Shown here: piece after piece, positions 2,240 to 61,005 of the stretch
Numbering within the stretch: the first letter of the stretch is position 1
How the letters are laid out: every line of letters starts with the position of its first letter
Origin: an uncultured delta proteobacterium
Lineage (GTDB): Bacteria; Desulfobacterota; Desulfobacteria; Desulfobacterales; JAFDCJ01
NCBI GenBank assembly: GCA_963769935.1
Contig: CAVYNY010000010.1
Coordinates: forward strand, 512,001 to 576,000
DNA: 64,000 nucleotides
Direction of reading: 5' to 3'
Notes under the pieces: generated by a model
What the model was told of the DNA's origin: nothing
Seen by the model: only the letters and a program-made list of their open reading frames with translations
The model's database searches: none
Translations under genes and position numbers: made by a program

Positions 2240-2810
2240 GGTTTCAGGTGTCAGCGCCGCCGCCGGCCAAAACAACGGCCGGTCTGATCGAAAAAGAAAC
2301 ATAATAGTTCACCGCAGAGCCCGCCGAGAAAGAAAAGTTAAATTAATCTCTGCGCTCTCTGCGGTGAGACACTTCGTAAAATTGGCATCGAATTTAAGGA
2401 AGTTTCATATGAGGTGTCAGCAGCTCCGCTGACTGCCGAAGCGGCCAGTTTGTCGAGGAGGAGACTTAAATTTTCACCGCAGAGAAAGACTGAAAAGGCA
2501 TTGCTGGCAGGTCGAAAAATGAAAGATGTTAATGGCTGGTGGGAGTGGTTTTTAACCACGATTTCCGATGTTGACCCGACCGAGTTAATCGCGGTTGCAT
2601 CCAGCCCGTAGGGCTTACGCCCCGGAGTGAAAACCGCTCCCACAAGATCCTTAAACGGTCATCAGGTTCCAAAAAATTAGTGGTTCTTTCCATTTTTAAA
2701 GGGAAGTTAGAGGGGATTTCGTCTTCGATCAAACTGGCCGCTTTTCTGGCCAGAGGCGGAGCTGACACCCGAAACCTGACACCTGACACCTTAACCCTGA
2801 AACCTGAAAC
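2240..2810. repeat. Composite nested palindromic repeat element
   Basis: ~60-bp imperfect inverted repeats at 2240-2300 and 2715-2776 enclose a CACCGCAGAG..CTCTGCGGTG hairpin and a REP-like unit (2539-2643). The element ends in a CCTGA(C/A)A heptamer run. Its modules recur at 34150-34447. Confidence 0.8.
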
Positions 2811-2831
2811 CAACACAAAGGTGATTTACCC

Positions 2832-4628
2832 ATGGAAACCCGGACAGCAACCCCCAACGGCAGCCGCGAGAGCAGCACCGGTGAGTGGCGCAAGAAATAC
2901 TACTCGCGTTTGTTCCGCAAATTCGTTCTTTTAACCGTCTTCTGTTCGCTGACGCCGCTGCTGCTGGTGGGGTGGGGCATAAACATTTATTACACGCGCT
3001 TCGCCAGGGAGCGCATGCTGAATGATCTGCAGACCGAGGTAGCACACCATCGTAAAATTATCGAACTTTTTTTAGCCGAGCACAGCTCAAAGCTGCGTCT
3101 TATCGCCCATTCCCATTCGAAAATCGATTTAACCCGGATTTCGAACCTCACCGGCATTTTCGATATGATCAACCGCGATTACTGGGCCATCACCGACCTG
3201 GGCATCATCGATGCCGACGGCCGGCATCTGGCCTACATCGGTCCCTATGATTTAATGAGCAAAAATTATTCCGAGGCGGTCTGGTTCAAAGAGGTCATGC
3301 AAAAGGATATCTACATCAGCGACATGTTCATGGGATTCCGCCAGGAGCCTCATTTTATCATCGCGGTAACGCGCCTGGAAAACGGTGCCAAGTGGATTTT
3401 ACGCGCCACCGTCAATACGGAGGTCTTTCGCTCCCTGGTCGAAAATGTCCGCATCGGAAAAACCGGTCAAGTGTACCTGCTCAACCGCGAAGGCTATTTT
3501 CAAACCACTCCTCGCTTCCAGGGAAAAATAATGGAAAAGGCGCCCTACCCCATCGAAGCCTACCAGCCGGGCATGCGCGTCAGAGTTCTGGCAGCGCAAA
3601 ACGGAGACGCCTCCGGAAGCCGGCCGCGTCAAATCGTATGCGAAACATGGCTTGAGAACCCAAAGTGGCTGCTGGTGGTCAGGCAAAATTATGCCGAAGC
3701 TTTCAATGACGTCAATCACGCCAACTATGCCATCCTGATCTTTCTTCACCTCAGCGCACTGACCATTCTGGTGGTCGCGATTCTGATTACCCGGCATATG
3801 ATTTCTGTAATCAAAAATCGCGACCGGGAAGCCGACCAGCTGAGCCGGCAGCTCTTGCAGACAGGAAAGCTGGCGGCTATCGGCCAGCTGTCGGCCGGCG
3901 TGGCGCACGAAATCAACAACCCGCTGGCCATTGTGCTGACCGAAAGGCAGCTTTTGCTGGACGCCGCCGAACGACATCAGATTCAAAGCCGGGAGTTTGA
4001 GATCCAATTTGAAGATTCCATGAACCAAATCGATGTGCAGGTGCAGCGCTGCAAACGCATCACCCACAATTTGCTCAGATTTTCCCGCCGGACGGAATCC
4101 CTTCTGGAAACGGTGGATATCAATCAGTTTATCAGGGAAGTCATCGAGCTGATGGAGCGCGAGGCGCGGGCCGACGGAATTAAATTCCAGGTGGACCTGG
4201 ACGAGTCGCTGCGGCCGTTGGTTTCCGATATTTCCCAGCTTCAGCAGGTTTTTTTAAATATCATTACCAATGCCATTGACGCCCACGACGGCAAACCCTA
4301 CGGTGCCATCCGCATTAAAACCAGGGCCGGCAAAAACAACGACGGGGTGTCGATTTCATTCAGTGACAGCGGTTCGGGCATTGCGCCTGAAAATTTAGAT
4401 AAAATATTTGACCCGTTTTTTACCACCAAACCCGTGGGCAAGGGCACCGGCTTGGGTTTATCGATCTGTTACAGCATCATGAAACAGCTGGGCGGACACA
4501 TTGCCGTGCAAAGTGAAGTCGGCAAGGGATCTGAATTTACGCTGTTTATTCCCGACAATCCGCCCACACAACTACGGGAAGACATGGCCAATGCGCAGGG
4601 AGCGCAGTTGGCGGCAATGTCATTCTAA
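2832..4628 (+). CDS. Membrane sensor histidine kinase (Cache-type sensor, NtrB-like HisKA/HATPase)
   Basis: Two TM helices, H-box AHEINNPL, N-box [10 protein letters not shown]-boxes DSGSGI and GKGTGLGL. Confidence 0.95.
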
Positions 4629-4640
4629 AGGAGGAACACC

Positions 4641-5099
4641 ATGATAGGATCAAAAATTTTGCTGGTCGATGATGAAGTCGTATTTACCCAGAATATGGCA
4701 AAGCTGCTGTCCAACCGGGGATATGCCGTCACGGTGGTCAACAACGGGGATGCTGCGATTCGAGCACTGGAGGAAAAGGATTTTGACGTGGTGGTGCTGG
4801 ACCTCAAGATGCCCGGCAGGGACGGTATCACGACCCTGAGGGAAATCAAAAAACTCGGTCTGCTCACCCAAACGCTGATTCTGACCGGGCACGGCTCGAT
4901 CGATACCGCCCTGGAGGCGATCAAGATAGGGGCCTATGACTATCTCACCAAGCCGTGTGAAATTGACGAACTCATCGGCAAAATTGAAGGCGCTTGGGAA
5001 AAAAAAGACGGTGAAGTAAAGAAAGACATCCAGGAAAAGATCCAGAAAGTGGTGGAATCGCCCCAGGATGTATTCGACCTGTTTCCGAAGAAAAAATGA
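4641..5099 (+). CDS. Stand-alone response regulator receiver protein
   Basis: LLVDDE, DLKMPG, TGHG and YLTKP motifs; no output domain; AGGAGG RBS. Confidence 0.93.
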   Translation: MIGSKILLVDDEVVFTQNMAKLLSNRGYAVTVVNNGDAAIRALEEKDFDVVVLDLKMPGRDGITTLREIKKLGLLTQTLILTGHGSIDTALEAIKIGAYDYLTKPCEIDELIGKIEGAWEKKDGEVKKDIQEKIQKVVESPQDVFDLFPKKK

Positions 5100-5243
5100 G
5101 AACCGGCGATTGGGGGCCTATATTTACAAACTGTAAAAAATATCGACAGGCACCGCCGGCCGGAATCCATCCTGAGATCGGCTACGTTTTGACATATCAA
5201 ATTAATCAGGCATGTTACAGCGATATTCGTTCGACCCGCCGGT

Positions 5244-5259
5244 TGGCATATAACTTGCG
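5244..5259 (+). promoter_or_regulatory. Sigma54 (-24/-12) promoter
   Basis: TGGCATATAACTTGCG fits GG-N10-GC and lies ~115 bp upstream of the second kinase. Confidence 0.65.
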
Positions 5260-5374
5260 ATCTATGGACTCAAAATTTCATCCGGTGCCAAACGATTTGA
5301 TTGGTCCCGGATCGCCTCCCCAATCTGCGGTCTGTCAATCAGAGGGGTAACGACAGCATTAATTATAGCAAATT

Positions 5375-7063: not shown

Positions 7064-7244
7064 TATGGGTGCTTAACAAGGCGACATCGACTATTTGTTG
7101 TTGATGTTGATGATGAGGTTGCATTTTAACGTTATGAATGGACTCGAAGTGAAAATGACTAATCCGCCTAAAAAATGGCGGGCAAGAATGAGCTAATCCG
7201 CCTGTGGTGGACTATCGTTTTTAAATAGACAGAATACCGCAAAT

Positions 7245-7272
7245 ATTCAATCTTCAATCTTCAATTTTCAAT
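7245..7272. repeat. Heptamer tandem array (TTCAATC)n
   Basis: attcaatcttcaatcttcaattttcaat immediately before the RBS of the next gene. Confidence 0.75.
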
Positions 7273-7292
7273 GAACAAGTAGGGAGTTTACC

Positions 7293-7754
7293 ATGGAAAA
7301 AATGAAAATATTGCTGGTGGACGATGAACAACGCTTTCTGGCCACCACCCAAAAGCTGCTGGCCAAAAAAGGGATCGATGCGGTCACCGCTGCCGGCGGA
7401 GCAGAAGCCCTGGACATCTTAAACAGCCGGAGCATCCACGTCGTCATCCTGGATGTTAAAATGCCGGGGATGGACGGCAATGAAACCTTAAAGGAAATTA
7501 AAACACGGTTTCCGCTGGTGGAGGTCATCATGTTGACCGGCCATGCCACGGTGGACTCCGCCATCGACGGCTTGAAATCCGGCGCCACCGATTATCTGAT
7601 GAAGCCGACCGGTATCGATGAACTGATCGAGAAAGCTACGGAGGCTTTTGAAAAAAGGCAGCGCCTGGAGGAAAAAATACGGTTGGCCCAGGCTCGGCAG
7701 TTCATGAAATCGCCGCGGGAAATTTTAAAAGGGGCTGGGAACCTGGAAAGTTGA
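7293..7754 (+). CDS. Stand-alone response regulator receiver protein
   Basis: LLVDDE, DVKMPG, TGHA and YLMKP motifs. Confidence 0.93.
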   Translation: MEKMKILLVDDEQRFLATTQKLLAKKGIDAVTAAGGAEALDILNSRSIHVVILDVKMPGMDGNETLKEIKTRFPLVEVIMLTGHATVDSAIDGLKSGATDYLMKPTGIDELIEKATEAFEKRQRLEEKIRLAQARQFMKSPREILKGAGNLES

Positions 7755-7768
7755 GAAAAGAGGATATT

Positions 7769-9814: not shown

Positions 9815-9828
9815 GAGGTTTCAGAAAA

Positions 9829-11363: not shown

Positions 11364-11453
11364 ACGATCCCGGCCCGACGGGCCGGACTTTGAATTGTCA
11401 ACTAAGGGGCTGTGAAATTAAAATTTTAGAGTGCCGGCTTCCGGCTCGAAAGG

Positions 11454-11626
11454 GTATTGGAGTGATGGAGTACTGGAGTAATGGAAAAAGGCTGGATGTC
11501 TGTTTTTTCAACACGAAAACACGAAATTTAAAAAACACGAAACTTTTATATTCTCTTTTTCGTTCTTTCGTGCTTTCGTGATTAATTTCTTTTTTGGTTC
11601 TCCGCCTCCGGCGGATCCAGGTTAGG
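11454..11626. repeat. Octamer arrays and palindromic modules
   Basis: (GGAGTRNT)n at 11454-11484; CACGAAA-type left arm 11511-11543 inverted against TTTCGTG-type right arm 11558-11582; TCCGCCTCCGGCGGA hairpin before the RBS. Confidence 0.75.
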
Positions 11627-11633
11627 AGCATTT

Positions 11634-13124
11634 ATGATGTTAGAGCAAAGATCTTTTCCTGTTCTGACGGCCGAAGAAGCTGTTATGCATATCAAAGACG
11701 GCGACGCGGTGGCCTTTAGCGGGTTCACCCCGGCCGGCGCGGCCAAGGCCGTGCCCAAGGCATTGGCCAAACGAGCGCTGCAGGAGCACGCGCTCGGGCG
11801 TCCGTTCAAACTGCGCATCCTGACGGGCGCATCCAGCGGCCAGGAAATCGATGAGGATTTGGCCCGCGCGGAAGCCGTCGTCTGGCGCGGACCGTATCAA
11901 GCCGGCCAGGCCATCCGGCAGCAAATCAACCGGCAGCAGGTGGAATATGTGGATATGCACCTGTCCCATGTTCCCCAAACCATCGCCTTCGGCTTCTTCG
12001 GCCGGATTAATTTCGCCGTGGTGGAAGCCACCGAGATTACCCCCGACGGCCGTGTGTACCTGAGCACCTCCATCGGCGCATCGCCCACCTATCTGCAATA
12101 TGCCGACAAGGTCTTCATCGAAATCAATCGGAGCCAATCGCCTCGGCTGCGGGAAATGGCCGACATTTTTGTCATGCCGCCCCCGCCGCACCGCAATGCC
12201 ATCCCGCTGTTCGATCCGTTGACCCGCATCGGTTGGCCCTATGCCCAGGTGGACCCCAAAAAAGTCATCGGCATCGTCTATAATGATGAACCCGACCGCG
12301 TCGACGAATTCGCGCCGCCCGACGAGCACAGCCGCCAAATCGCGCAGTATGTGGTCGAATTTTTGCTGAGTGAAAAACGGGCCGGTCGGATTCCGGCGGA
12401 TTTCCTGCCCCTGCAGGCCGGGGTCGGCAACGTGGCCAATGCCGTCCTCGGGGCCATCGGCGAACATCCCGACATCCCGCCCTTTAAAATGTATTCCGAG
12501 GTCTATCAGGATGCAATGGCCGACCTGATGGAGGCGGGTAAATTGCAGGGAGCCAGCGCAACGAGCCTGACGCTGACAGCGGCACGTTTGCAAAGAATTA
12601 CGGAGAACTTCGACTTCTTTGCCCCGCGGATTGTTTTGCGGCCGCAGGAAATTTCCAACCACCCGGGAATCATTCGTCGCCTGGGCGTCATTGCGATGAA
12701 CACGGCGCTGGAAATCGATATCTACGGCAACGTGAATTCATCGCATCTATACGGTATGGATGTCATGAACGGCATCGGCGGCAGCGGCGAATTCACCCGC
12801 AACAGCTATCTGTCTATTTTCATGACGCCGTCCATCGCCAAAGACGGGAAGATCTCCAAAATTGTGCCCATGTGTCCCCACATCGACAACAATGAGCATT
12901 CGGTTCAGGTGGTCGTCACGGACCAGGGGCTGGCGGATCTCAGGGGCCTGGGGCCCATGCAGCGGGCCAGGCTAATTATTGAAAAATGCGCTCACCCCCT
13001 TTACCGAGATTATCTGCAGCGCTATATCAAAGAGGCCCGCACCGGTCACATCCGCCACGACCTGACACGCTGCTTCGAACTTCACCGCAATCTCATGGAA
13101 CACGGGACGATGCTGCCGGAGTAG
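11634..13124 (+). CDS. Acetyl-CoA hydrolase / succinyl-CoA:acetate CoA-transferase family (AarC/Ach1-like)
   Basis: SGFTPAG, DMHLSH, LQAGVGNVANAV, LRPQEISN, GIGGSGEFTRN and QGLADLRGL motifs. Confidence 0.92.
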   Translation: MMLEQRSFPVLTAEEAVMHIKDGDAVAFSGFTPAGAAKAVPKALAKRALQEHALGRPFKLRILTGASSGQEIDEDLARAEAVVWRGPYQAGQAIRQQINRQQVEYVDMHLSHVPQTIAFGFFGRINFAVVEATEITPDGRVYLSTSIGASPTYLQYADKVFIEINRSQSPRLREMADIFVMPPPPHRNAIPLFDPLTRIGWPYAQVDPKKVIGIVYNDEPDRVDEFAPPDEHSRQIAQYVVEFLLSEKRAGRIPADFLPLQAGVGNVANAVLGAIGEHPDIPPFKMYSEVYQDAMADLMEAGKLQGASATSLTLTAARLQRITENFDFFAPRIVLRPQEISNHPGIIRRLGVIAMNTALEIDIYGNVNSSHLYGMDVMNGIGGSGEFTRNSYLSIFMTPSIAKDGKISKIVPMCPHIDNNEHSVQVVVTDQGLADLRGLGPMQRARLIIEKCAHPLYRDYLQRYIKEARTGHIRHDLTRCFELHRNLMEHGTMLPE

Positions 13125-13187: not shown

Positions 13188-13378
13188 TGCTGGATACTTG
13201 ATACTGGATGCTGGATACTTGATGCTGGATGCTTGTCCCAGCGGAGCGGAGATCCCGCTTATACGGGGATACTTGATATTCAGCAGTGAACCCGGATTGA
13301 GGTCTGGAAACATCCAGCATCCAGCCTGCCAGGCCGAAGCTCTTAAAGAGCGAAGGCTGGAAACCAATATCCAGGATC
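13188..13378. repeat. Heptamer inverted-arm hairpin element between convergent genes
   Basis: Left arm (TGGATGC/TGGATAC)n at 13188-13235; right arm (CATCCAG)n at 13311-13378, interrupted by the mini-hairpin CCAGGCCGAAGCTC..GAGCGAAGGCTGG. Confidence 0.8.
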
Positions 13379-33040: not shown

Positions 33041-33388
33041 AGCATCCTGGATTAAAGGGCCACGCAGACATCCGCAGATTACGCAGATTAAAATATCAAT
33101 AATTTTTGATGAATTAATTGTTGAGATGAAGGCTAGGTTGAACGATTTATCCGATATTCAAGACCTTCCGGGCGGGGATAAACCCCGCCCACACGGGACG
33201 TGTTGTTGTTCCAGCCTTCCTGTTGGAATCACTCAATTTAGGTAGACTATAGATATGCTGCGGCAGGCTGCCGAATCCGCCCGGTCAGCCAGCCATAGCC
33301 ATAGCGGGAAAAACGCGAGGCCCGACACCGGGACATGGGTGTCCGCCTGGATTCCGGGCCGGAGCCGTCATTTTGCACCTTCTTCAAA

Positions 33389-33988: not shown

Positions 33989-34028
33989 ACCTGCCTCCCT
34001 CCGGGATTCGTTGAGATCGTTGTGATCA

Positions 34029-34102
34029 TCCCAGTTAAACAAAAGACAAAAAGGTTTAACGGGATAAATTTGCATCGTTGGGATCGTTATGTCCGTTTAG
34101 AT
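34029..34102. repeat. ~70-bp repeat, copy 1 (copy 2 at 37081-37154)
   Basis: TCCCAGTTAAACAAA.GACAAAAAGGTTTAACGGGA..AATTTGCATCGTTG.GATCGTT, nearly identical at both sites. Confidence 0.85.
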
Positions 34103-34149
34103 CCTAAGCGCTTTTACTCCCTTCTTCATATATGAAACTACACTATAAA

Positions 34150-34500
34150 AGTTTCTTCCTCGATCAGACTGGACGCTGGCGGCCAGAGGCGGTGCTCGTA
34201 TGAAACTTCATGAAATTCGATGTCATTTTTAGTCTGAAGTTAATTCCTGGCGGGAGTGGTTTTTAACCACGATTACAGATATCGGCCCGGCAGAGTGAAT
34301 CGCGATTGCCTCCAGCCCGTAAGGCTTGCGCCCCGGAGGGAAAACCGCTCCCACAGCATCTTTAAACTGTTTTCAGGTTCCCACAAAGTATCATCTTCAA
34401 TCAAACTGGTCGCCTTCGCGGCCAACGGCGCCGCTGCCACCTGAAACCAGCTTGACCCGCATATTTCCACCTTCCCCATTCCGCATTCCGAATTCAATTC
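34150..34500. repeat. Composite repeat element homologous to 2240-2810
   Basis: 34150-34240 is an inverted homolog of 2371-2466; REP-like unit 34250-34354 matches 2539-2643; ends in an (ATTCCGC)-type heptamer run. Confidence 0.8.
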
Positions 34501-34508
34501 TATTCTGT

Positions 34509-35015: not shown

Positions 35016-35340
35016 CCTGATTTTCCTCTTATGAAATAAGTTACCACGTAATCTGAAATCAGCAGTCCCTTTTTGGGACTCGGGGCCTGGCCGCCAGCGG
35101 TATCTTCAACCGTTGCATTGTCTGCCATTTTGTGGCTTCTCCTAAAATCGAATCAAACCATCATCCGCTTTTAGTCCCAATATCCCATTTTCACACCCCT
35201 CCAAAGGCGGATCATCGACATCCCACTATTCCATGGGTTATCCGACGGCAACGACCACCCCTCTCTCCGAGCTGTAGGCTCTACGAGCCGGCAGCTGGGG
35301 TTAAGTCAGATCCTGGCCCTCTGGGGTAAAAATCATGACT

Positions 35341-37049: not shown

Positions 37050-37080
37050 GGATTATTGATCCTCTTGACGGTTGAGAGCG

Positions 37081-37414
37081 TCCCAGTTAAACAAACGACA
37101 AAAAGGTTTAACGGGAAGAATTTGCATCGTTGAGATCGTTTAGTTCGTTAAGATGGTTTTGATCGTTTGGATCGTTTATGGGTTGAATAGGTTGATTGGG
37201 TTGATTGAGTTGAATAAGCTGATAGGTTTAAATGGATATACCTTACCAGCTTAATCAACCAATCAACTTAATCAACTCTTCTCGCTATCAACTATGAACT
37301 ATCAACCGGCACTGAAAGTGCCTCAACCCGCACCTCGCAACCCGCACCCCGTAGCCCGCAACTCGCAACACACAATATGTATTATTCCGCAATCCGCAAT
37401 CCCAAATCCGCAAT
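37081..37414. repeat. Mosaic of 7-9-mer tandem arrays within the mla operon
   Basis: Copy 2 of the 70-bp repeat; (GATCGTTNN)n; (GGTTGATTG)n inverted against (AATCAACTT)n; (CTATSAA)n; (CCCGCAM)n; (ATCCGCA)n. Confidence 0.85.
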
Positions 37415-37418
37415 CGTT

Positions 37419-38192: not shown

Positions 38193-38210
38193 GGATTTAT
38201 CTTTGGTAAG

Positions 38211-38419
38211 AAATGCCTAAAATTCAAAATGCCTAAATTGCCTAAAATTGAGGATTCGCTTCGCTCTGTCTAAACAGAAAGGCGATGAGCGCTGTGACCA
38301 GAAGACTGAGCATTTGGTTCCATGCATGATGCGAATTCTTTTTAACTCTGTCCCCAGTCCTCGTCCCTTAGTCCTAATACGCCTTTTGCCTTTAGCCTTG
38401 AGCCTTTAACCTTAAGCCT
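38211..38419. repeat. Short tandem arrays between mlaE and mlaF
   Basis: (TGCCTAAA)n, (GTCCYYA)n and (GCCTTTA)n runs; the last type also occurs at 62030-62056. Confidence 0.75.
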
Positions 38420-39591
38420 TATATTCCCAACACATTACACAGCACGGTAATGATCGCCGTTGCCACGGTGATGGCGATGATCGACGTCACAACGGCCGAT
38501 GTGGTTGCGTCGCCGACGGCCGAGGCACTGCGTCCGCAGGCCATTCCTTTGAGGCACCCGGCCAGGGCCACCAACATGCCGAAAACAGCGGCCTGAAAAA
38601 TTCCGATAAAAAAATCGTTTAAATTCAGGGAGGCCTTCGTCTGATTCACATACTGGATGAGGCCGATGTCGAGCAGGCCCACGCCGACGATCAGGCCGCC
38701 GAGCACCCCCATCAGGTCCGCAAAGACGCACAACAGCGGCATCATCAGGACCAGGGCCAGCATCCGCGGCAGCACCAGAAACTCCATGGGAGACACCCCC
38801 ATGGTCTTCAAGGCATCAATCTCTTCGTTGACCTGCATCGTCCCCAGCTGAGCGGCAAAAGCCGCACCGGTGCGGCCCGCCATGACAATCCCGGCCATGA
38901 CGGCCCCCAGGACCCGCACCATGGCAATGGCCACCAGGTTGGCCACAAAGATCTGGGCCCCGAACATCATCAGCTGAACAGCGCCCACGAAGGCCAGGAT
39001 CATGCCGACCAGAAAACTGATCAAAGCCACGATCGGCAGGGCATCGACGCCGCAGTCTTGGATGAGCAGCGTCAAATCGACGCGGCGAAAGCTGGCCTGA
39101 CCCACCGGAAATTTCAAAAGTGCAACTACCGCCTCGCCGATGAACGCCAGCAGTCCCGAAGCGGCTTGCCACAGCGCAATGGCGGATGTGCCGACGCGCA
39201 CCAAAAATGGATCGCGCGTGGTTGCCTTTCGCGCCCCTTTTCTTTCCGCAACGGCCGTCGCCAGACCTATCAGTTTTTTGACGCCGACCGGCAGCCCGTC
39301 CTTTTCCACAACAATATTATTCGCTGAACAGTATTGGTAGAGATCCATTAAAAACGTCACCAGGCTGCTGTCCCAGCCGGTAAGCTGGTCGGTTTCGAAC
39401 ACCAGACGCCGGATGCCTTTAGACGGTTGGATGTGCGGGTAGGCTTCTGCGCTGGCAGGACGATGCGCATCGATTTTCCACCGGCCCTTAAGTTTGACAA
39501 GCAGGGTGTCGTTATCCTGCGGGCTGAAACTGAGGTCACCGCCTTCAGAATGCTTTTCTTTTTCTGATGACTGTTGTTTGTCTTTTGCCAT
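38419..39591 (-). CDS. mlaE: MlaE permease with N-terminal STAS-like domain
   Basis: AGRTGAAFAAQLGTMQVNEEIDAL and VGDATTSAVV. Confidence 0.92.
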   Translation of the reverse strand: MAKDKQQSSEKEKHSEGGDLSFSPQDNDTLLVKLKGRWKIDAHRPASAEAYPHIQPSKGIRRLVFETDQLTGWDSSLVTFLMDLYQYCSANNIVVEKDGLPVGVKKLIGLATAVAERKGARKATTRDPFLVRVGTSAIALWQAASGLLAFIGEAVVALLKFPVGQASFRRVDLTLLIQDCGVDALPIVALISFLVGMILAFVGAVQLMMFGAQIFVANLVAIAMVRVLGAVMAGIVMAGRTGAAFAAQLGTMQVNEEIDALKTMGVSPMEFLVLPRMLALVLMMPLLCVFADLMGVLGGLIVGVGLLDIGLIQYVNQTKASLNLNDFFIGIFQAAVFGMLVALAGCLKGMACGRSASAVGDATTSAVVTSIIAITVATAIITVLCNVLGI

Positions 39592-46814: not shown

Positions 46815-49366
46815 CTACTGCGGCCCGGCCTGGATGTGACGCAGCGGCGTGCCATCGAGCGCTTCGGCCTCTGCCTTCTCGAGCGTCTTGATGTCCTCGG
46901 GCGTCAGCTTGGGACGATCGACCCTGATCGTCAGCTTGTCGAGTTTGGCCGTCAGCGGGAACGGCGGTGTGTAGTCCTCGTCATTCACGCCGGTAAGCGT
47001 GTCGGAGCCGATGTCGAAGCTCTCGTCCCATTGCAGGATCATGGGCAGCGTACGCTTCACCTCGATGGTCTGCGCTGCCTGGCCGTCCACCTTGAGCGTG
47101 CCGGTACCGGAACGGCCGAGGCCGCTCAAGTTGTTGAAGGCAAGCGTGCCCACACCTAGGCCGTCATACTTGAAGTCAAACTCCAGCGTGTGCTTGCCGG
47201 GCGTGAGGGCCTCCGGGCCTTCCCACTTGATGCGCTTGAGGTCGACCAGGTTCCACAGGAACACCGGCTTGCCCTTGAGCAGGTAGAAGCCATAGCCGGC
47301 GAAGCGCCCGCCCGAGGTCAGGATCATGCCCTCGGCGCCGCCTTCGGGGACCGTGATGTCCGCCGTGATGGTGTACGAGGCTATCCAGCAGGAAGGGCGA
47401 GTCGCCCTGCGGGAGTCCCACCATCGGCCGGGTATAGACGAACTCCGTGCGGCCGGCGGTGATGTTCGGGCGCGGCGCTACGATGCGGGCCGCCACCGAG
47501 GCATCCAGCGGGAAGACCTGGTACTTCTTCGCTTCCGCGACGAACTTTTCGCGCAGCTCCGCCACTTTCTCCGGATGCTGCGCGGCGATGTCGTTGGCCT
47601 GGCTGAAGTCCTTGGTCAGGTCGTAGAGCTGGAACACCTGGTTGTTCAGGGGGTCGGGGTTCGCCATACCGAAGGCCTGCCAGGGCGCGCGGTTGACCTT
47701 GGTGCTCAGCAGCCAGCCGTCGTCATAGAGCGCCCACTGGCCCATCATCTCGAAGTACTGGGTCTTGTGGCGCGACGGCACCTTGGCGTTGGCGGCGTCG
47801 AAGGTGTAGAGGAAGCTGGTGCCCTCGATGGGCGCCTGTTTGATGCCGTCGACCTCCTCAGGCGCGGGGATGCCGGCGGCCTCGAGGATAGTCGGCACGA
47901 CGTCGATCACGTGGATGAACTGCTCACGCAAAGCTCCCTTGTCCTTGATACGCGCCGGCCAGGACACCACCATGTTCTGGTTGATGCCGCCGAGCCTGGA
48001 CGCATTCTGCTTGAACCAGTCGAACGGCGTGTCGAAGGCCCACGACCATCCCGCCGACATGTGGTTGTAAGTCTGCTCCGTGCCCCAGACGTCATACCAC
48101 TTCATCTGCACGTCGACAGGCAACTCGCTCAGGCCATTGAAGAACGCCACTTCATTGGGCGTGCCCAGCGGCCCGCCCTCGGCGCTGGTGCCGTTGTCGC
48201 CGTTGATGTAGATGATCAGCGTGTTGTCGAGCCTGCCCAGGTCCTCGAAAGCCTGGATCACGCGGCCGATCTCGTGGTCGTTGTAGGCGGCATAGGCGGC
48301 GAAGACCTCCACCTGGCGGATGAAGAGCTTCTTCGCCTCGGCGCTGAGCTGGTCCCACGGCTTCAGGAGGTCTATCGGGCCAGGGCGTCAGCTTCGAATC
48401 CTTGTCGATCACGCCGAGGCGCATCTGGTTCTCGAAGATGCGCTCGCGCAGCTTGTTGTAGCCATCGTCGAAGAGATGCATCGCGTGGATCTTGTCCACC
48501 CACTCCTTGGTCGGGTGATGCGGCGCGTGCGTGGCGCCGGGCGCGTACTTGATGAAGATCGGCTTGCTGGGGTCCGTCTGGTGGATGCGCGTAATGTAGT
48601 CGATCGCGTCGTCCGCCATGCCGGTGATAAGGTTCCAGCCCGGCTTGCCCTCGAACGGATAGATCTGGGTGGTGTTGCGGAACAGGTTCGGCTGCCACTG
48701 GTTGGAGTCGCCGCCGACAAAGCCGTAGAAATACTCGAAGCCCATCCCGGTCGGCCATTGGTCAAACGGCCCGACCTGGCTGGCGGCAAACGCCGGCGTG
48801 TTGTGGTCCTTGCCGAACCACGCCGTGGAATAGCCGTTGTCGAGCAGAATCCGCCCGATGGTGGCCTTGTCCTTGGCGATGATGCTGTTGTAGCCCGGGA
48901 AGCCCGTGGACTGCTCGGAGATCACGCCGAAGCCGGCCGAGTGGTGGTTGCGCCCGGTGATGAGCGCCGCCCGCGTCGGCGAGCACAGCGCGGTGGAGAA
49001 CACGCGGTTGTAGCGCAGACCCTCGTTCGCGATGCGGTCCATGGTCGGCGTCGGAATCACCCCGCCGAAGGTGCTCGGCACCCCGAAGCCGGCATCGTCG
49101 GTGATGATCAGCAGTACGTTGGGCGCCTCCTTGGGCGGCACCATGCGCGGCGCCCACCAGGGCTTCGATTCCAGGGCATCGTCCTTGATCACGCCGCCGA
49201 ATTTCGGGTCGGGCGGCGGGAGTTGCTTGCCGCTGATGGTGGTGGTGGCGCTGGGCGAACCCAACTCACCGGTAATTTCCTGCGCCATGGCCGGCAAGGC
49301 GGCCAATAAAACCGCGATCAGAATAACGGCGAGCGCCATTGTTTTTGATCGGCTACGATTTTTCAT
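46815..49366 (-). CDS. Cys-type arylsulfatase 1, exported (frameshifts near 48375 and 47385)
   Basis: PNVLLIITDD, LCSPTRAALITGR, WFGKDH, HAPH and GDNG; ORFs 48152..49366, 47176..48312 and 46815..47327 concatenate into one protein. Confidence 0.9.
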
Positions 49367-49960: not shown

Positions 49961-52496
49961 CTACTCTCTCGCCAACGCAACCCGTTTGGCAATGGCCGAG
50001 AGCTGCCTGCGATCTGTTTCCGCTTACTGCATCGTCCCAAGCTTGAAGGTCAGCTTGTCGATCGTGCCGGTGAACTTGAACGGCACATCGTAGCGATACT
50101 CGAGAGCGCCAGCGGGGTGCGGGTATCCTCGCCGATGTCGAAGGTTTCGTCCTCCGGGAACGTGATCGGGGTGGAGTGTTCCATGGAATTTTTGGCCACT
50201 TCCTGGCCGTCCACAGAGAGCACGCCCGTCCCTCCCTTGCCCAGGCCCGGTTCAGCAGGCTTGTAGTCGAAGACGATGGTGTGCTTGCCGGCGCCCAACT
50301 CAGGCCCTTCCCACGCCGTGCGCTTGAGGTCGAGCAGGTTGTAGAGGAACACGACCTTGCCCCGGCCGAATCCAAACTCGCCCTTGCTCAGGAACAGGCC
50401 ATAGCCGCCGAAGCGCCCGCCCTGGGTGACGATCATGCCTTCCGCGCCGCCTGCGGGGATCGTCGACCTCGGCGGTGATGGTGTAGGCCTTGTTCAGGAT
50501 GTCCGGTGCAGTGCTGCCCGGCACACCGGTCAGTCCTCCCGAATAGGTGAACTCCGTTCGTCCCGCCGTGAGGCTCGGCTTCGGCGAGTTCCAGCGCGCG
50601 AGCGTCGTGTTGTCGAGCGGCAGCACGTTATACTTCGCCGCCTCGAGGTAGAAGAGGTTCTGCATCTGCTTGAGCTTGTCCGGCATCTTGGCGGCCAGAT
50701 CGTTGTTCTCGGTGGGATCCTCCATGACGTTGTAGAGCTCCCACTTGTACCCGCTGATCACATCGGGCGGCGGCTTGGTGCTCAGCTCCCACGGGAGCGT
50801 CACCGGCGTCGTGGCCGCCACCCACCCGTCGTGATAGATGGCGCGGTTGCCGAGCATCTCGAAATATTGCGTCGTGTGCCGGGTCGGGGCGTTGGCATTG
50901 GCCTTGTCCCAGGTGTACACCATGCTCATGCCTTCGATGGGACGCTGCTTGATGCCGTTGATGGTGTCGGGGGCCGGGATGCCGGTCGCTTCGAGGATGG
51001 TCGGCACGATGTCGATGACGTGGTGGAACTGGCGGCGGATGCCGCCAGGGTCCTTGATGTGGCCGGGCCAGGACATGGCCATGCCCTGGGCCGTCCCGCC
51101 GAAATGCGACGGCACCTGCTTCATCCACTTAAAGGGCGTGTCGAACGCCCACGCCCAGGGCGCCGCAAAGTGCGGGTAGGTCCGAGCGGACCCCCAGAAC
51201 TCGTACCAGAGAAACTGGTCCTTGACCGGCACTTCGACGCCATTGAAGGTGGTGAACTCGTTCGGCGTGCCGTTGAGCATGCCTTCCGCGCTCGCGCCGT
51301 TGTCGCCGCTGATGTAGATGATCAACGTATTGTTGAACTCGCCGAGGTCTTCGACGGCCTGGATGACGCGGCCGATCTCATGATCGGTGTAGGCCTGGTA
51401 CGCCCCATAGACTTCCGCCTGCTTGATGAAGAGCTTCTTTTGCTCCCAGTCGAGCGAGTCCCACCGGGGCAGCTTCGCGCCGCCGTAAATATCCTGTCCG
51501 TCCGGCCACGGGGTCAGTTGCGCGTTCTCGGGCATGATGCCGAGCCGCTTCTGGTTGGCGAAGATGGTCTCCCGCAATTTTTCCCAGCCGTCGTCGAAGA
51601 GATGCATGGCGCTGATCTTGTCGATCCATTCCTTCGTCGGATGATGCGGGGCGTGCGTGCCGCCCGGCACGTAATAGACAAAGAACGGTTTGTCGGGCGC
51701 GAGCTCCTTGAGCTGCTTCATGTACTGGATCGCCTCGTCGGCCATGGCCGTGGTCAGGTTCCAGCCGGGGTTGCCCTGGAAGGGGTAGATGGCCGTGGTA
51801 TTGCGGAACAGGTTCGGCTCCCACTGGCTGGCGTCGCCGCCGACGAAGCCGTAGAAATAATCGAAGCCCATGCCGGTCGGCCATTGATTGAACGGCCCGG
51901 CCTGGCTGTTCTCGAAGAACGGCGTGTTGTGATCCTTGCCGAACCACGAGGTCCCGTAGCCGTTGTCCTTCAGGATCGTGCCAATGGTGCCCTTCTCGAT
52001 CGGGATGATCGAGTCGTAGCCCGGGAACCCCGTCGCGATTTCGCCCACCACCCCGAAGCCCGCCGAGTGATGGTTGCGCCCGGTGATGATCGCCGCCCGC
52101 GTGGGCGAGCAGAGCGACGTGGAGTGGAAGTTTGTATAGCGCAGCCCGCTTTGCGCGATGCGATCCAGGGCCGGGGTCGGGATGACGCCGCCGAAGGTGC
52201 CCGGCGCGCCGAAGCCGTCGTCGTCGGTCATGATGAGCAGCACGTTGGGCGCGCCCTTGGGCGGCACGACGCGCGGCGGCCACCAGGCTTTCGACTCCGA
52301 GGCCTTGTCTTTGATCACCCCGCCGAATTTCGGATCGGGCGGCAGGAAGTTGTTTGCCGTTGATGGTGGTGGTGGCGCTGGGCGAACCCAACTCACCGGT
52401 AACTTGCTGCGCCATGGCCGGCAAGGCGGTCATATACACAATAGCAATCAGCATAACGGCGATTGCCGCCGCTAATGATCGATTTTCTTTTTTCAT
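49961..52496 (-). CDS. Cys-type arylsulfatase 2, exported (frameshifts near 52347, 50460, 50105, 50025)
   Basis: Signal peptide from ATG 52496; PNVLLIMTDD, LCSPTRAAIITGR, HAPH and GDNG; C-terminus FDIGEDT..FKFTGTIDKL. Confidence 0.9.
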
Positions 52497-53948: not shown

Positions 53949-54554
53949 TTAGAATAACGTGTCCTTGATCAAAGCCGGCAGCACCGGTATCATTTGGAAA
54001 CGGATGTCCCAATGCTGCCCGAAATCGTCCGGGTGCACCACCATGTAATCCGCCTCGACGGTGAACTTCACCGGCAGGCGGCCGATCCTGACCATCTTGC
54101 CGATGCCCAGGCCGACGGGCACGGTAAAGCGATTATCCTGGTCGGCCTTCCAGTCGATGAGGATATTCGGCGCCATGCCGATCTGCCAGTTGTCCCCGAA
54201 AAAATACTGAATGAAATACTGGATATTGGCCTGGCTGGTGGCTTCGCGGTCCCCGTCGCCGGCAAACGACCACCACTGCTGGGCCAGGGAGCCGAAAACC
54301 CACTCCTTCCCCATGTAAAGCCCCACCGCGGCCGGGCCCGCCTGGTACTGGCCCTGCCCCAAAGCGTCGTTGGTGGCCGTGGGAAAAATGAAAGTCGGCC
54401 CCACCCCCCATATGAAGCCGCTGGACAGCTTGGCCGGCGAAAGGAGCGACACCAGCGCGATGTCGCCGAGGCCGGACTTGTCGTCCCAGCCCTCTCCCGG
54501 CTCAAAATCAGGGGAGCTGAATAGGTAGGGGAAGACCGGGCGGGTGATGAGGTT
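53949..54554 (-). CDS. Exon 2 of an outer-membrane beta-barrel/porin-like gene
   Basis: NLITRPVFP, GLGDI, WGVGPTFIFPTA, TVPVGLG; continues exon 1 in frame once the intron is removed. Confidence 0.8.
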   Translation of the reverse strand, partial: NLITRPVFPYLFSSPDFEPGEGWDDKSGLGDIALVSLLSPAKLSSGFIWGVGPTFIFPTATNDALGQGQYQAGPAAVGLYMGKEWVFGSLAQQWWSFAGDGDREATSQANIQYFIQYFFGDNWQIGMAPNILIDWKADQDNRFTVPVGLGIGKMVRIGRLPVKFTVEADYMVVHPDDFGQHWDIRFQMIPVLPALIKDTLF

Positions 54555-56799
54555 TCCGGGTAAAGGCACTGCTTGCGCAGCGCCCTCCCCACAGACCCGT
54601 ACTTGAAGATTTCCCTCATACGGTTCCTCGGTTCCAATCCTTTTTACCGAATTGGAAACCAAACAGGCGACACCCCGATTGGCGCATAACTTTGCTGCCC
54701 TTTAGGCTTATCAGATATTGTGGACTATCCTGGGTATAGGCAATGGAAAGCTGGCTCGGATTTTCTCGAACTTTTCCCAGCTGATGCCGCCCTTGTGGCT
54801 GCGGCGGCTTAGCCAGAACCGCCAAGCCTTCTCGGCGTACTCAAATACAACCTCAAGGGCCTTGTAGTTGCCACGTACTCCAAAGTACAGGTAGTAGCCC
54901 CGCAACTTCGTACATAGCATCTGATGTTGCTCCTTGATCGGCTCATGCCGATTTTCACGACACCACTGCCACAGCCGCTTCATAAAACGCGACAGCCGCT
55001 TGCCTATTGTTTTCTTCTTTATCACCCAGTAGCCTCGAAGCGATTTTGACCAGTAAAAGGTAAAGCCCAGAAAATCAAACGTACCTTTTCCTTTGCCTTT
55101 TTCCTTTAACGGCGGCCTTCTGAAGTCGATGACCGCGGTCTTGTCCGCATGAAGGGCCAAGCCATACTCATTGAACCGTTTTGGCAGTACATTCATTATC
55201 CGCTTTGCGTCTGACTCGAACTCACAACCGATGATAAAGTCATCCGCATAGCGAATGATGAAACATTTGCCCTTCATTCGAGGCAATGCTTGCTTTACAA
55301 ACCATTCGTCCAGCACATAGTGCAGGAATATGTTCGAAAGCACGGTGAAATTACTCCGCCTTGAGGCACTCCTTTGCCAGGATAGGAAAGAATCCCTTCT
55401 TCCATCACCCCGGCGTTCAACCATTTGCCGATCAGACGCAGCATCCCACCGTCATTGACCCTTCGCTTAATAAACTTGCGAAGCAGATTATGATCAATGT
55501 TGTCAAATAGTCCTTCGATATCTGCGCTCACTATCCAGCCTATGTTCAGCTTCCGGCAATCCTCACGTATCTGGTGGATTGCCTTGTGCTGGCTGTGGCC
55601 CTTGCGAAAGGCGTGGGAAAAATCATAGAAGTTCACGTCATAGATGACGTTTAAGATGGTAGACGCTGCCCTTTGGACGATTTTGTCCTCCAGAGCCGGT
55701 ATACCGATCGGCCTATTTTTCCCCCTTCCTTGTCGATCCAGATCCGTCTTACCGGTGTGGCAACGTACTGACCTCTGCGCAGCCGTTGATATAGATTATA
55801 GAGGTTTTCATCAAGATCCTTGGCGTACTCCTTGGCCGTGATCTTGTCCACACCGGCTGACTTACTCTTACGAACCTGACGAAAGGATTTCTTCAACAGG
55901 TACAAATCAATCCTGTGGACCACAGAGGTGAATACCAGCTCCGGCTCACTCTCTGCCAGCATTCTGATCCGTAAAAGCGATGATTCGCCCTCAAACAGCG
56001 GCGGGCCTCCTCCTGACGGATCTGCCACACCCTGACCGGAATCGCCAGCAGCCTTTGCCGCAATTCCCTGGGTTTCCGTGGATATGGTTGGTGACCTCTG
56101 AGTATCTCCCATAGTTCCTTCCAGAGAAACGTTATACCCGGCTTCTCCTTCCCTGCAGTGGGTCGCTTGGGCCTCACTTCCCCACCTTACCGGTCCAGCA
56201 TTTACGTTCCTGACCATCGGTACTATGATCCGCTAAGACTTCCAGAAAGTCCATCTCGGGTTTGTTCGCTTTTCGCTATCCTCCCCCGATACCTTGTATT
56301 GCTCCTTTGCTTTCGTCTCGCTGGTCAGGTTAGAGCGCCCCTTCACAGCGCCTGGATTCTCGCCTCGTTGCGCTGGCCGGCACCCTCCAACCGGTTATTG
56401 TACACAAGGAAAACATCTGGATCTCCCGAGTTCCCAAGTTACCCCTATGAGCACATGCCCTGGTCTCAGACCCCGGTGGTGTCCCGAATGCTTGCCATAG
56501 CGCATGTGGGACTGCTGCCTTCCGGCCAGATGAACGCCGTCGGCTTTCTCTCATACAAGCGGAACTTATCCCAAGGTCCACAACTATACATTTTTCGGGG
56601 CTCAATACACAGCCTGCATCCTTGATCCATCCGGCTTCGGACTCCCGTCTCCGGGTTGGCCCGCGGATTCACTACTGACCTGGTGGCTAACCTTTAGTCA
56701 GGTGGGACTTGAACCTAGGTGATCCTCACCCACTGGGTAACAATATCGAATTTCACCTCCTTGGAAGGTTCCCAACGATTCGGGCTTAGCTGGGCACGA
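54555..56799 (-). mobile_element. Group II intron (~2245 nt) inserted in sense orientation in the porin-like gene
   Basis: Domain V GAACCGTATGAG-GGAAAT-CTTCAAGTACGGGTC and a domain VI hairpin at the 3' end; RT ORF inside; ~690-nt region upstream of the RT start; excision restores LPIHLTKEW|NLITRP. Boundaries uncertain by 2 nt. Confidence 0.92.
54711..56112 (-). CDS. ltrA: Group II intron reverse transcriptase/maturase without endonuclease domain (two frameshifts, near 55715 and 55343)
   Basis: AGVD, RPIGIPALEDKIVQ, ADIEGLFDNIDH, GVPQGGVISP, RYADD, FDFLGF; domain X LRGYYLYF; ends at PRIVHNI. Confidence 0.9.
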
Positions 56800-57065
56800 C
56801 CACTCCTTTGTCAGGTGAATCGGCAGAACAGGCTGGAAGTTCATCACATCCTGCTCGCGGGTCTTGTCCGTCGCTTCCCCCTGCAAGTAGTAGCGGTTGA
56901 ACTGAAAGTTCAGTGCCCAGATGTCCGCTACCGGGTTGTTGAGCTGCTTGGCCACATCGGCCATGGACTTGTGATCCGGCGCGGCGGGTTCGCCCGTCTG
57001 GGCACCTGCGCCGCCGGGCAGGCAAAAAACAATACACAGAAAACTAAAAGCCATCGAATTTTCAT
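56800..57065 (-). CDS. Exon 1 of the porin-like gene
   Basis: Signal peptide, AKQLNNPVA..FQPVLPIHLTKEW; start is 57054, or 57065 with a frameshift. Confidence 0.75.
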
Positions 57066-57272
57066 AATTTATTCCCTTTCATGGTCTATCGGAGCTAAAA
57101 CCGCATTGCCTGTTTTAAACTCGGCTGGCCTTATTCCTCCTGACAGTCGGGTATGAGGAGCAGCTGAGGGTCGAGCGGCTGAACAGCCGCCGATCGCGCT
57201 GTCCGCCCCAACCTGTGTGCTGTCCATAAAGGCCGCTCTCCGACAAGCTTAACAGTAGATCGGAACGCAAAA

Positions 57273-58812: not shown

Positions 58813-59027
58813 TCGTCTTTCCTCCTTTTACTGTAAGCGGTTCACTGAAATCAACTAATCCATCCGGCTTTTGGTAACAAAATCCTCCGAAGCCGTCCGC
58901 ATTGAACCGATCTGCCGAACCCGCCGCTGCTCCGACCTCGGTATTGATTTCCCACACCTAATCCGGACAAGCCGGAATTGAAAATTGAAGATTTGTGCAC
59001 AAAATGCACGAATTTAACTTCTAAGAT

Positions 59028-59359
59028 CTATTCGCGGGTTTGGATTCTGGCCTGTTCTATGGTTTCCACGCCGGTCGAGTGCGCGATTTGTCGAAACGGA
59101 TCTCCGGGGGTTCGGCGGCCATCTCGACCACCAGAAGAACTTTGCGGTATTTCTCGGATCGCAGATGACACTGCACGTCCTCGTCACTCATCCAGAGTTC
59201 CTCGAGCAGGATAGCGCGCCCATCCTCCACACCCCCATAAAGCCAGCGGCCGATACAACCCGGCTCGAATTGGGTCTGCTCGGTCGTCGAACCCAGAATT
59301 TCCAAGGCCTCGCTCTGCTTTTCAAGTGGTATGAGCATCCTGATGGTGGATCGTACCAT
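59028..59359 (-). CDS. ABM-family (putative quinol monooxygenase) protein, frameshift near the 3' end
   Basis: EPGC...LY, EELW and HLRSEKYR pattern. Confidence 0.75.
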
Positions 59360-59516
59360 TCTCGTCCCTTTAAGAGTCTTCAGGTCGACGGTTTGTAAAC
59401 CGTCCGCCGGGGATCCGAACCCGTCCGGAGGTTCACAGAAATTATTGATACTATCTGATGAAACAGCGCAGGCATCTCTGTAGATCTATAAAATTTTCCT
59501 GCTTCCCAACTATGTG

Positions 59517-59532
59517 AGCGAAATCTATGCCA
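59517..59532 (-). promoter_or_regulatory. Sigma54 promoter at the head of the minus-strand envelope gene run
   Basis: Minus strand TGGCATAGATTTCGCT fits GG-N10-GC, ~160 bp upstream of the ABM gene. Confidence 0.55.
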
Positions 59533-59925
59533 GATGGATGAGAACAGGCTGCCTGTCGGATAAGACCCTTTATATATTAGATTTTTGCTAATTGGCGCCG
59601 GGTGAACGCAAGGGGAATAAAATCGGCTTTCTGCCGATATTTCGGCACACTGCTCTTATTTCGGCATGCTTTTAAGGCCCTCACAAAAATTTTTGAACTC
59701 TCAATCGGGAATTTGCCTTCTCCCGCGAAGCGACAGGATGCTATCAAATGCTTCCATCCAAGATCCTTCATAGCAGGGCTCCTTTAAAACTAAAATGAGA
59801 CGTTCAAACTAAGACGGGGCGTTCGTGCGAGCTTTTACAAATCGATAATCGCTGGTACTTCAAAATGCATCATCCGTCAAAAAATCTTAAATTCCCGGTC
59901 GAGGCAGGGCGCATTCGTATGGCCC

Positions 59926-60709
59926 TCAGGGCTGCAGGCCGACATTCGCGAGAGCGGTCCGGGCTGCTTCGGCGCTCAGCCGCTCGACGTGGGGCCTGAC
60001 CTGCCGGATCACCTCCGGACTGAGAAACCGAAGATCGCTTTTCCAGGGAAAATCCGGCAAGGATGATTGGCTGCAGGGCGCCTGCGCGTAGCTTGCCAGG
60101 GTCGCCGGCCGAGTCTGGAAAATCGCGACAACGATGTTGGCATAGGGAGTTGCCGTGTTTTGGAAGGGCGAAAAAAATTGGGAGAGTCCCGAAAGAGCCT
60201 TGGTCCGGGTGTAGATTCCATAGCCTTTGGTGGCCACCGGATCATTAGCGATCTTAAAGCAGGCAACCTGCGGCCACCGGCCGGAGTCGTAGCTGCTTAC
60301 GGAGATGATCAGATCCAGGCGGTTTTCTTCGGCGGTTTGGTTTATAAAGGCCTTGAGATCATCCCCCATCCACCCCGTAACGGCGTTGAGGATACTGTTT
60401 GACATCGACTGCTTCCAGTCTTGCGGGGCATTGCCCGCGATGGGGATAAACGTATAGCTGCCGCGGGCCCGCAAGTCACTTTCGATTGTCCGGGTGAGGT
60501 AACCCGGAATGTTCCAATCCACATTGTAATCTTTGGTAAAGCTGTCGAAGCGCAGCGATCCAACATCCACGTGGGTCATATCAGTCTCCAGCAGATTGAG
60601 GATGCCGATTCGGGCTTCCGGCGGCAACTGCAGCCGTACCGGTTGCGAACCCGCGCAACCCAGTTACGCTCATCATAATCAGAAACAAAGCAGGACGAAA
60701 GATGTGCAT
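59926..60709 (-). CDS. Hypothetical lipoprotein (frameshift near 60662)
   Basis: AAGGAG RBS, ATG at 60709, signal peptide ending in GCAGSQ, then ORF 59926..60627. Confidence 0.6.
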
Positions 60710-60787
60710 GTGACAGGGCTCCTTTATTTTAGCAGCTAATTGACTGATTTTACGAAAAATGCCTGCTTAATTGTAATGGAAATTATG

Positions 60788-61005
60788 AAAATCCCAAGCA
60801 CCAAAAACCAAATCCCAAACAAATATCAATGATTCAAATTCAAAATTCCAAACAATTGAACCGTCCACAGTTGTGCCAACGGCATCATCACCGGCAGACG
60901 AGGGGTTGAGAAGCGATGCGATACAACTATTTTGAATGTTTGGGTTATTGAATATTCAAAAATTTGCTATTTATTTGTAATTTGGTGCTTGAGATTTGGG
61001 ATTTT
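60788..61005. repeat. Heptamer inverted-arm hairpin element
   Basis: Left arm AAAATCCCAAGCACCAAA..CCAAACA (60788-60854) is complementary to right arm TGTTTGG..TTTGGTGCTTGAGATTTGGGATTTT (60937-61005). Confidence 0.85.

Follow-up and report, generated by a model that had tools for sequence, protein, structure and literature searches.

What do short tandem arrays with units of 7-9 nt, devoid of any gene and recurring in one intergenic gap after another, represent in a bacterial genome? The question is raised by a 64,000-nt stretch (hereafter the window; G000:C10:512001-576000) from an uncultured delta proteobacterium, whose genes include two-component systems, a CoA transferase, the Mla/Pqi operon, and a hybrid kinase. 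G000 designates the window's own genome, an 8.0-Mb assembly of 41 contigs; C-numbers are its contigs, other G-numbers are genomes of relatives, and L-numbers are cassette loci containing a cargo gene. We propose that the window arrays are probably gene-less derivatives of cassettes carrying a four-helix-bundle or a GxxExxY gene, and that they spread as DNA hairpins copied in trans by an enzyme, in the manner of REPINs (hairpin-forming doublets built from REPs, which are repetitive extragenic palindromes). Gene-less units and cassettes share arm words and inner motifs, with one word family per protein clade. The gene has been deleted at orthologous sites, gene-less units occur as stereotyped multi-copy families, and arrays have been gained or lost between relatives.

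The arrays are far more frequent than expected by chance. They were called with Tandem Repeats Finder (TRF; score at least 40, periods 7-9) in 3100 gaps of 80-1500 nt, delimited by the 6902 genes of a purpose-made dicodon gene caller that missed some atypical open reading frames (ORFs). These gaps hold 460, 274, and 189 arrays of period 7, 8, and 9 (923 in total, in 645 gaps), compared with 0, 0, and 1-3 in three dinucleotide shuffles; no array of period 4-6 was found in the 3100 gaps at the same score. Over the entire genome, the counts are 581, 328, and 248 (1157 arrays) vs. 0, 1, and 9 in the control, and 1120 of the 1157 lie outside the strongly coding ORFs of the dicodon caller. The window contributes 11 arrays in 6 of its 29 gaps, whereas 100 dinucleotide shuffles of the window gaps gave a single one. 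The initial annotation had placed short degenerate arrays in ten window gaps; all ten hold them, at or near those positions, and the excess over composition-matched shuffles is confirmed. The annotation had also described the unit sequence as free. On the contrary, the 1157 arrays reduce to 281 canonical units and about 122 clusters, some 20 families dominate, and the units follow the clades of cargo proteins. In Rfam, the arrays have no match, the window matches being group II intron pieces only.

The link to cargo genes rests on the genes found in G000 and in its relatives. Candidates in G000 are seven TIGR02436 (four-helix-bundle) genes, one full GxxExxY gene, and three DUF559 matches. Six of the seven TIGR02436 genes have arrays on both sides, in support of the link to such cassettes suggested by the annotation; the seventh is flanked on either side by one and the same word, without inversion. 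The words flanking the four-helix-bundle genes of G000 are those of the gene-less arrays in the window. Across the genus, TIGR02436 occurs in 23/23 genomes and GxxExxY in 12/23 (at 1e-25). Of 84 four-helix-bundle loci, 71 are enclosed by inverted arms (0-7 with random partners and 9 in direct orientation), as are 15 of 20 GxxExxY loci; kin are not independent, so that genus-wide counts are overestimates. Exact occurrences in the cargo flanks of relatives were found for 476 of the 1157 G000 units, as against 54 letter-shuffled units, and in a comparison with cargo flanks, 15 of the 26 arm segments of the window exceeded both controls by at least 8 points.

Words and proteins are coupled at the level of clades. 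In a quick tree (90/95 rows, 126 columns, used for terminal clades alone), each protein clade has its own word. At loci with different neighbors, the left arm of one locus pairs with the right arm of the other in 23 of 45 pairs with at least 60% protein identity, in 4/58 pairs at 45-60%, and in 29/2543 below 45%. An 8-mer arm persists in one four-helix-bundle clade: 21 of 25 loci with at least 70% identity have it, in records labeled Desulfobacterales, Pirellulales, Nitrospirota, Bacteroidia, and Chlorobiaceae. A search for this clade returned 75 loci; inverted arms were present in 36 of the 41 scored, 13 of which also score in direct orientation. For one four-helix-bundle protein of G000, the closest relatives are in records labeled Desulfobacterales or Desulfobacteraceae.

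Other cargo was sought as well. DUF559, named by the annotation as a cargo to be checked, is not supported, two of the three genes having been inspected and neither being bracketed by such arms. The DUF559 genes at C8:93859 and C8:104603 are flanked by a different, GC-rich palindromic repeat type. An automated search yielded 251 candidates; the 28 listed contained four of the four-helix-bundle ORFs and otherwise host genes between two elements. Several GxxExxY genes (C8:188559 in G000; L112, L113, L120, L129, and L132) stand between direct repeats of a whole hairpin unit and not in a single stem.

The window elements are given below with their strand where one was assigned. Fold z-scores refer to 13 stretches (sense strand, 25 shuffles per stretch), and the other paired values are scores against cargo flanks vs. 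controls.

2240-2420 (+), gene-less composite with 42 genome copies: left arm of the CTGACAC family, GC hairpin, and nested GxxExxY-type hairpin at 2308-2375; z -3.6; arms match the flanks of four-helix-bundle loci L092/L095 and GxxExxY loci L112/L114.
2535-2660 and about 34250-34360, nested REP-like palindrome, a separate family of 12 copies, inside CTGACAC-family elements; no partner gene was found in the genome bracketing search.
2762-2811, right arm belonging to the 7-mer CTGACAC family, with the kinase start codon (2832) following after 20 nt; 60 vs. 28-32 (cassette L107).
7225-7272, solo right arm of the 7-mer AATCTTC/AATATTC family with inner motif; 70 vs. 34 (C13 cassette of G000); gap empty in G034.
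11454-11485, solo left arm of the 8-mer GGAGTAAT family; 60 vs. 28 (L099 and C9 cassette of G000); in G034 the gap is empty, with stop and start overlapping.
11503-11630, gene-less stereotyped hairpin of the 8-mer ACACGAAA family, GxxExxY type; 36-37 copies; flank match with L116.
13188-13378, hairpin of the 7-mer GCTGGAT family between the convergent CoA-transferase and map genes; z -3.3; 76 vs. 30 for the left arm, no excess over control for the right one.
33061-33090, weak solo arm of the 9-mer CGCAGATTA, GxxExxY type; 40 vs. 28 (L132).
33989-34508, mlaD-mlaC gap, a composite of nested elements: a 9-mer arm at 34008-34100, a CTGACAC-family insert whose core is REP-like, and a 7-mer arm at 34472-34495.
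35150-35321, dispersed composite of 26 copies: decayed 8-mer arm, without cargo-flank match above control, and mini-palindrome of about 40 nt (46 copies).
37050-37418, mlaF-pqiB gap: a 9-mer hairpin with arms of four or more families stacked around it in nested fashion, the first arm 3 nt past the mlaF stop; z -3.4.
38193-38420, non-cognate arms in the mlaE-mlaF gap: a 7-mer at the mlaE stop and the 9-mer AAATGCCTA near the mlaF start; z 0.0.
60780-61015, gene-less stereotyped hairpin of a C-first 7-mer family, 17 copies; z -4.0; its arms are those of the four-helix-bundle clade L089/L091/L097.
62025-62217 (-), hybrid histidine kinase: three 7-mer arrays that are read in frame within a loop of its receiver domain and form no stable hairpin (z +0.3).

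The array cited at 33061-33089 is present, although it is a two-to-three-unit solo arm with a TRF score of 36, and BLAST of its gap against the genome gave no match at the family level. The mini-palindrome family (46 copies), seen at 35255-35300 and at 2600-2635, nests within other elements and genes.

The arrays are positioned and oriented with respect to the upstream gene. They occur in 59 of 499 divergent gaps as compared with 527 of 3004 co-directional ones. G-rich arrays lie in the first half of the co-directional gap in 354/434 cases, C-rich arrays in 107/362, and neighboring arrays follow the order G-then-C 183 times and C-then-G 16 times. In 164 of 360 gaps, no more than 10 nt separate the first G-rich array from the upstream stop, where 41 such gaps would be expected; for the first C-rich array, this holds in 12 of 303 (30 expected). 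Array and stop triplet share one register in 54 of 282 cases, vs. 7-17 for shifted phases. This register would suit an independent origin at each site, by polymerase slippage from the surroundings of the stop codon with template switching for the mirror arm, and slippage of 7-mers is an idea already in print (relayed by PMC4679880). However, G-rich strands are themselves rich in stops (837/1457 units vs. 353), so that an arm can simply supply the stop. In addition, copies at unrelated sites share non-repetitive inner motifs and loops, and the words follow protein clades across sites and phyla. Hence, slippage is very improbable as the origin of the arrays and is already largely refuted in this role, whereas it is likely the cause of the variation in unit number.

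Complementary arms had been described at several sites, and they are indeed over-represented: 125 cognate inverted pairs within 300 nt were counted, vs. a permutation mean of 17 and a maximum of 29. They nevertheless concern a minority of arrays, and five of the 13 window stretches fold at z <= -2.6 in the sense direction. Several others do no better than chance, such as 38193-38418 (z 0.0) and the two halves of 33989-34508 (z 0.0 and -0.4).

Comparison with relatives shows that orthologous sites occur filled, gene-less, and empty. No cargo gene is present in the window, as the annotation had stated, and the filled/empty polymorphism that it had called for exists, four window gaps being empty in some relatives and filled with other families in others, and one of the four holding a cassette in G033. 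The mlaE-mlaF gap (38193-38418) is reduced to at most 1 nt in 3 of 16 relatives (L018, a mis-paired match, being left out), and in 5 of 18 the mlaF-pqiB gap (37050-37418) measures 13-24 nt; in the majority of the remaining relatives, the two gaps contain arrays, often of other families. The 7064-7292 and 11364-11636 gaps are empty in G034 and hold other sequence in G013. In G033, the mlaE-mlaF gap contains a four-helix-bundle cassette nested within older arms. This cassette (L104) has arms of 6-mer period repeated several times, inside CTGACAC arms. One contig of run X2 skips 34109-34454, a single case in which the junction letters are not seen; RNA runs X8, X12, X14, and X17 gave contigs from mixed relatives, and the long joints in them correspond to repeat cross-mapping.

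In the reverse direction, 45 of 89 cassettes of relatives could be placed in G000, onto 28 gaps (two of which are one site), the other 44 having no usable adjacent gene pair. The 28 gaps comprise three intact genes, five partial gene relics (C16:272195, C1:129250, C11:329714, C2:15820, and C8:55780), 11 with arrays and no gene, seven with no called array, and two that are empty. The relic at C16:272195 has lost an internal part but retains the two ends of the gene as well as the two arms. These five deletions, together with the many arrays that are solo arms, are what would be expected if every array were the scar of a full cassette decayed in place and gene-less forms never moved. Yet few relics exist genome-wide. 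A tblastn search of the 3100 gaps, 866 of them array-bearing, gave 17 matches, of which four are intact genes, nine partial ones, and four artefacts of arm read-through; reversed gaps gave none. Relic matches of the L105 query, which contained arm sequence, were discarded, and nucleotide relic counts are inflated by it.

Decay in place also accounts poorly for the stereotyped gene-less units. Three window elements recur with a conserved loop length (2240-2420, 42 copies; 11503-11630, 36-37; 60780-61015, 17), and families of 17-42 copies sharing one short loop would require the same deletion to have occurred repeatedly. Moreover, gene-less copies are found in both orientations and genes in one: the cargo gene points the same way as the gene upstream of it in 70 of 71 loci (80% in the background, kin being non-independent), while 14 queries with gene-less families revealed no orientation bias relative to host transcription (all p >= 0.21), a test that is weak because the hairpins are near-symmetric. 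We therefore regard decay alone as unlikely. At least 80 nt at 95% identity or more are shared with another gap by 118 gaps, 47 of which bear arrays, and some pairs are 95-98% identical. The non-autonomous elements suggested by the annotation thus find support in the stereotyped multi-copy gene-less units, which have the length stereotypy, dispersed copies (42, 37, and 17), and lack of an ORF typical of miniature inverted-repeat transposable elements (MITEs). By eye, no consistent target-site duplication was seen in 26/41 composite copies, empty sites being too diverged for comparison. Orientation relative to local GC skew is not biased in three families (10:10, 7:7, and 3:2); it is 7:1 and 12:1 in two others, most loci being too flat to call (for the mini-palindrome family, 12:1 with 33 such loci). 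Adenine-specific change, as in a diversity-generating retroelement, was not seen in the three large hairpin families, the rates of A and T change being 0.053/0.056, 0.069/0.116, and 0.133/0.139; for three short arm queries, A change exceeds T change, on few columns.

The annotation had alternatively proposed mRNA-processing signals. Hairpins might be kept as RNase III sites, as stabilizers, or as binding sites of a cognate four-helix-bundle pentamer, thereby tuning operon expression. The position of arrays right behind stops and their scarcity in divergent gaps are in keeping with such a role, sense folds are usually more stable than antisense folds in absolute energy, and a related rRNA cassette is cut by RNase III (PMC4990558). 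Tests for selection on the RNA were, however, negative. There is no excess of G.U over A.C on the sense strand, either in 202 array gaps (310 vs. 341, p 0.24) or in 71 cassettes (112 vs. 90, p 0.14), and the orientation test, weak as it is, shows no bias either. Furthermore, the same gap may be empty or carry unrelated families in congeners, and several window sites do not fold. Without G.U or orientation bias, mobile DNA fits better than an mRNA-processing signal, which we hold to be quite improbable. Altogether, the rarity of relics, the stereotyped units, the orientation contrast between genes and gene-less copies, and the lack of G.U excess favor DNA-level copying in trans over both decay alone and a selected RNA signal.

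Under the REPIN-like copying that we prefer, a full cassette would land behind a stop codon and be expressed by read-through. Internal deletion would then yield a gene-less unit, which could be copied into new gaps in either orientation. Units arriving later would insert into the loops of earlier ones and so build nested stacks, the number of units would change by slippage, and solo arms would be what decay leaves. The cargo protein probably recognizes its own word and either recruits the nuclease or acts as it; GxxExxY proteins carry a PD-(D/E)XK domain. A more ambitious proposal, possible but rather doubtful at this stage, is that of a mobile multi-family system in which every clade, be it of the 23S-IVS (intervening sequence) four-helix-bundle pentamer or of the GxxExxY nuclease, recognizes a 7-9-base word of its own and drives the copying of gene-less hairpins. 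If so, about 1000 arrays from 20 or more families coexisting in one genome would form a REPIN-like population run by proteins to which no function is assigned, and the long-noted excess of bacterial heptamer repeats would be explained. The word-to-clade table contains many cognate and non-cognate pairs, so that a binding or mobilization assay can be designed directly.

In one case, a vehicle for the cassette was observed. G007 contains seven near-identical elements with unrelated flanks (L052-L057 and L148), each made up of an 8-mer arm, a four-helix-bundle gene, an IS91-family transposase with Zn_Tnp_IS91 and Y2_Tnp domains, and the mirror arm. All seven start at a shared GAAC, the complement of GTTC, which is the terIS site of IS801 and IS1294 (PMC13181058), and this GTTC-type end lies upstream of the transposase. 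In the copies read, both frames are split by a mini-palindrome of about 32 nt, and a 2.2-kb deletion lies between two such palindromes; of the six elements retrieved first, two are longer by 2.2 kb, which include an IS110-type gene. Deletion derivatives are present in G001, G010, and G000 (C13:346641 and C24:9987). An IS91-type HUH transposase has thus demonstrably carried the cassette for one 8-mer family. A cassette can therefore be transposed whole, which does not name the general enzyme. With respect to other IS91-family elements (PMC13181058), the G007 element has the same two transposase domains, a GTTC-type end, an upstream ORF, and deletion derivatives. It differs in that its upstream ORF is the four-helix-bundle gene, the transposase frame is split, one 8-mer family alone is concerned, and no intact copy was found in G000.

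Several observations weigh against our interpretation. The mobilizer of most families was not found in the searches of G000 for Y1 and Y2/IS91 transposases. A close relative of the G007 transposase is lacking in G000 (0 matches at 1e-20), where two distant Y2_Tnp matches occur, and only 5 of 25 IS91-like loci match a four-helix-bundle protein, four of them being G007 copies; the cassette is absent from the other loci retrieved. IS91 was also unseen for the other families of the window, and its candidacy as general mobilizer is not supported. Y1 transposases are rejected as cargo or partner, none of the 11 Y1_Tnp (PF01797) genes of G000 being bracketed by 7-9-mer arrays. No catalytic activity is known for PF05635. 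Most gene-less copies are only 75-85% alike, which makes most of their movement old, and in some near-identical pairs the copies are composites whose other parts may be what moves them. Exact matches in the sampled cargo flanks are missing for 681 of the 1157 units, possibly a matter of sampling or of other cargo, and 11 of the 26 arm segments of the window failed to exceed the controls. Cognate inverted pairs take in only 14% of the arrays (268 of 1899). Finally, relatives with an empty site might have lost the array there and need not show the state before insertion.

Known systems resemble the population in part. The S23p element of Coxiella burnetii is an ORF-bearing IVS of 23S rRNA (PMC4990558). 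Such elements share with the cassettes a PF05635 protein (PDB 2gsc, 2rld) encoded in the loop of a long inverted-repeat stem, and a sporadic distribution (PMC4990558). In contrast, the cassettes described here lie between protein-coding genes and have arms consisting of periodic 7-9-mer arrays; there are about 100 gene-less forms for each gene, and GxxExxY proteins provide a second type of cargo. Identity with an rRNA IVS is rejected for the window, whose sites are between protein genes and which has no PF05635 gene (seven TIGR02436 genes are elsewhere in the genome). We also take the four-helix-bundle fold to be homologous to Avd, which was not returned by the search giving 2gsc and 2rld. REPINs and their RAYTs (REP-associated tyrosine transposases) share many extragenic gene-less inverted doublets, a repeat family tied to a gene flanked by the same repeat, and singlets produced by decay (PMC3116915); the over-representation of inverted doublets in extragenic space was recovered here (125 vs. 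17). On the other hand, the linked gene is not a Y1 transposase, the arm is a tandem array and not a short palindrome, some 20 or more families coexist, and near-identical proteins cross phyla. Identity with REPIN-RAYT is rejected, since no cognate RAYT flanked by the repeat was found among the 11 PF01797 genes. The population is real and genome-wide, and probably consists of gene-less derivatives; in its behavior it resembles REPINs or MITEs, but it fails the RAYT test and is distinct from an rRNA IVS.

Heptamer repeats in intergenic regions are themselves known. In cyanobacteria, they are called short tandemly repeated repetitive (STRR) sequences. They have been described in Xanthomonas and Nostoc (PMC4692102), and TAACTGA repeats in Beggiatoaceae (PMC4679880). 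These resemble the present arrays in being 7-mers with the G-rich strand in the sense direction within 50 bp of a stop, in their rarity between divergent genes, and in some inverted pairs and occasional in-frame copies; they differ in that each paper deals with one word, for which G-quadruplex or translational roles are proposed (PMC4692102, PMC4679880). The term "four helix" is absent from the main text of both papers. The arrays, their position behind stops, and the ORF-bearing rRNA IVS are thus already in print, and the class can be called undescribed, as it had been, for the link between arrays and cassettes but not for the arrays. That link was not found in the literature searched, subscription journals and supplements being places that could hold it, and the papers found there on GxxExxY or PF05635/TIGR02436, judged by title or start of abstract, do not deal with repeats. 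The window adds scale, the coupling of clade and word at independent sites, negative tests for RNA-level selection, and the IS91-borne case, and it ties an unexplained intergenic 7-9-mer excess to two large function-less protein families, PF05635 and GxxExxY.

The repeats have remodeled about one fifth of the gaps examined and also enter protein loops. The in-frame arrays at 62025-62217 had been missed by the initial annotation. Arrays occupy the equivalent receiver-domain loop in four more kinases of G000 (C10:579034, C17:199314, C35:133003, and C38:26871). Overall, 18 genes contain internal 7-8-mer arrays at a score of at least 36, some by chance. Two of the other in-frame sets lie in what we take, from motifs, to be a MutL linker (C19:110854) and a cobyrinate diamide synthase (C18:283901). 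Elsewhere in the window, a group II intron occupies 54554-56711 on the reverse strand (Rfam D1-D4 and D5/D6), its reverse-transcriptase gene being in two pieces, 54711-55424 and 55651-56217. Arylsulfatase-like genes lie at 47176-49366 and 50300-52396, also on the reverse strand; the former consists of two overlapping frames, possibly a frameshift.

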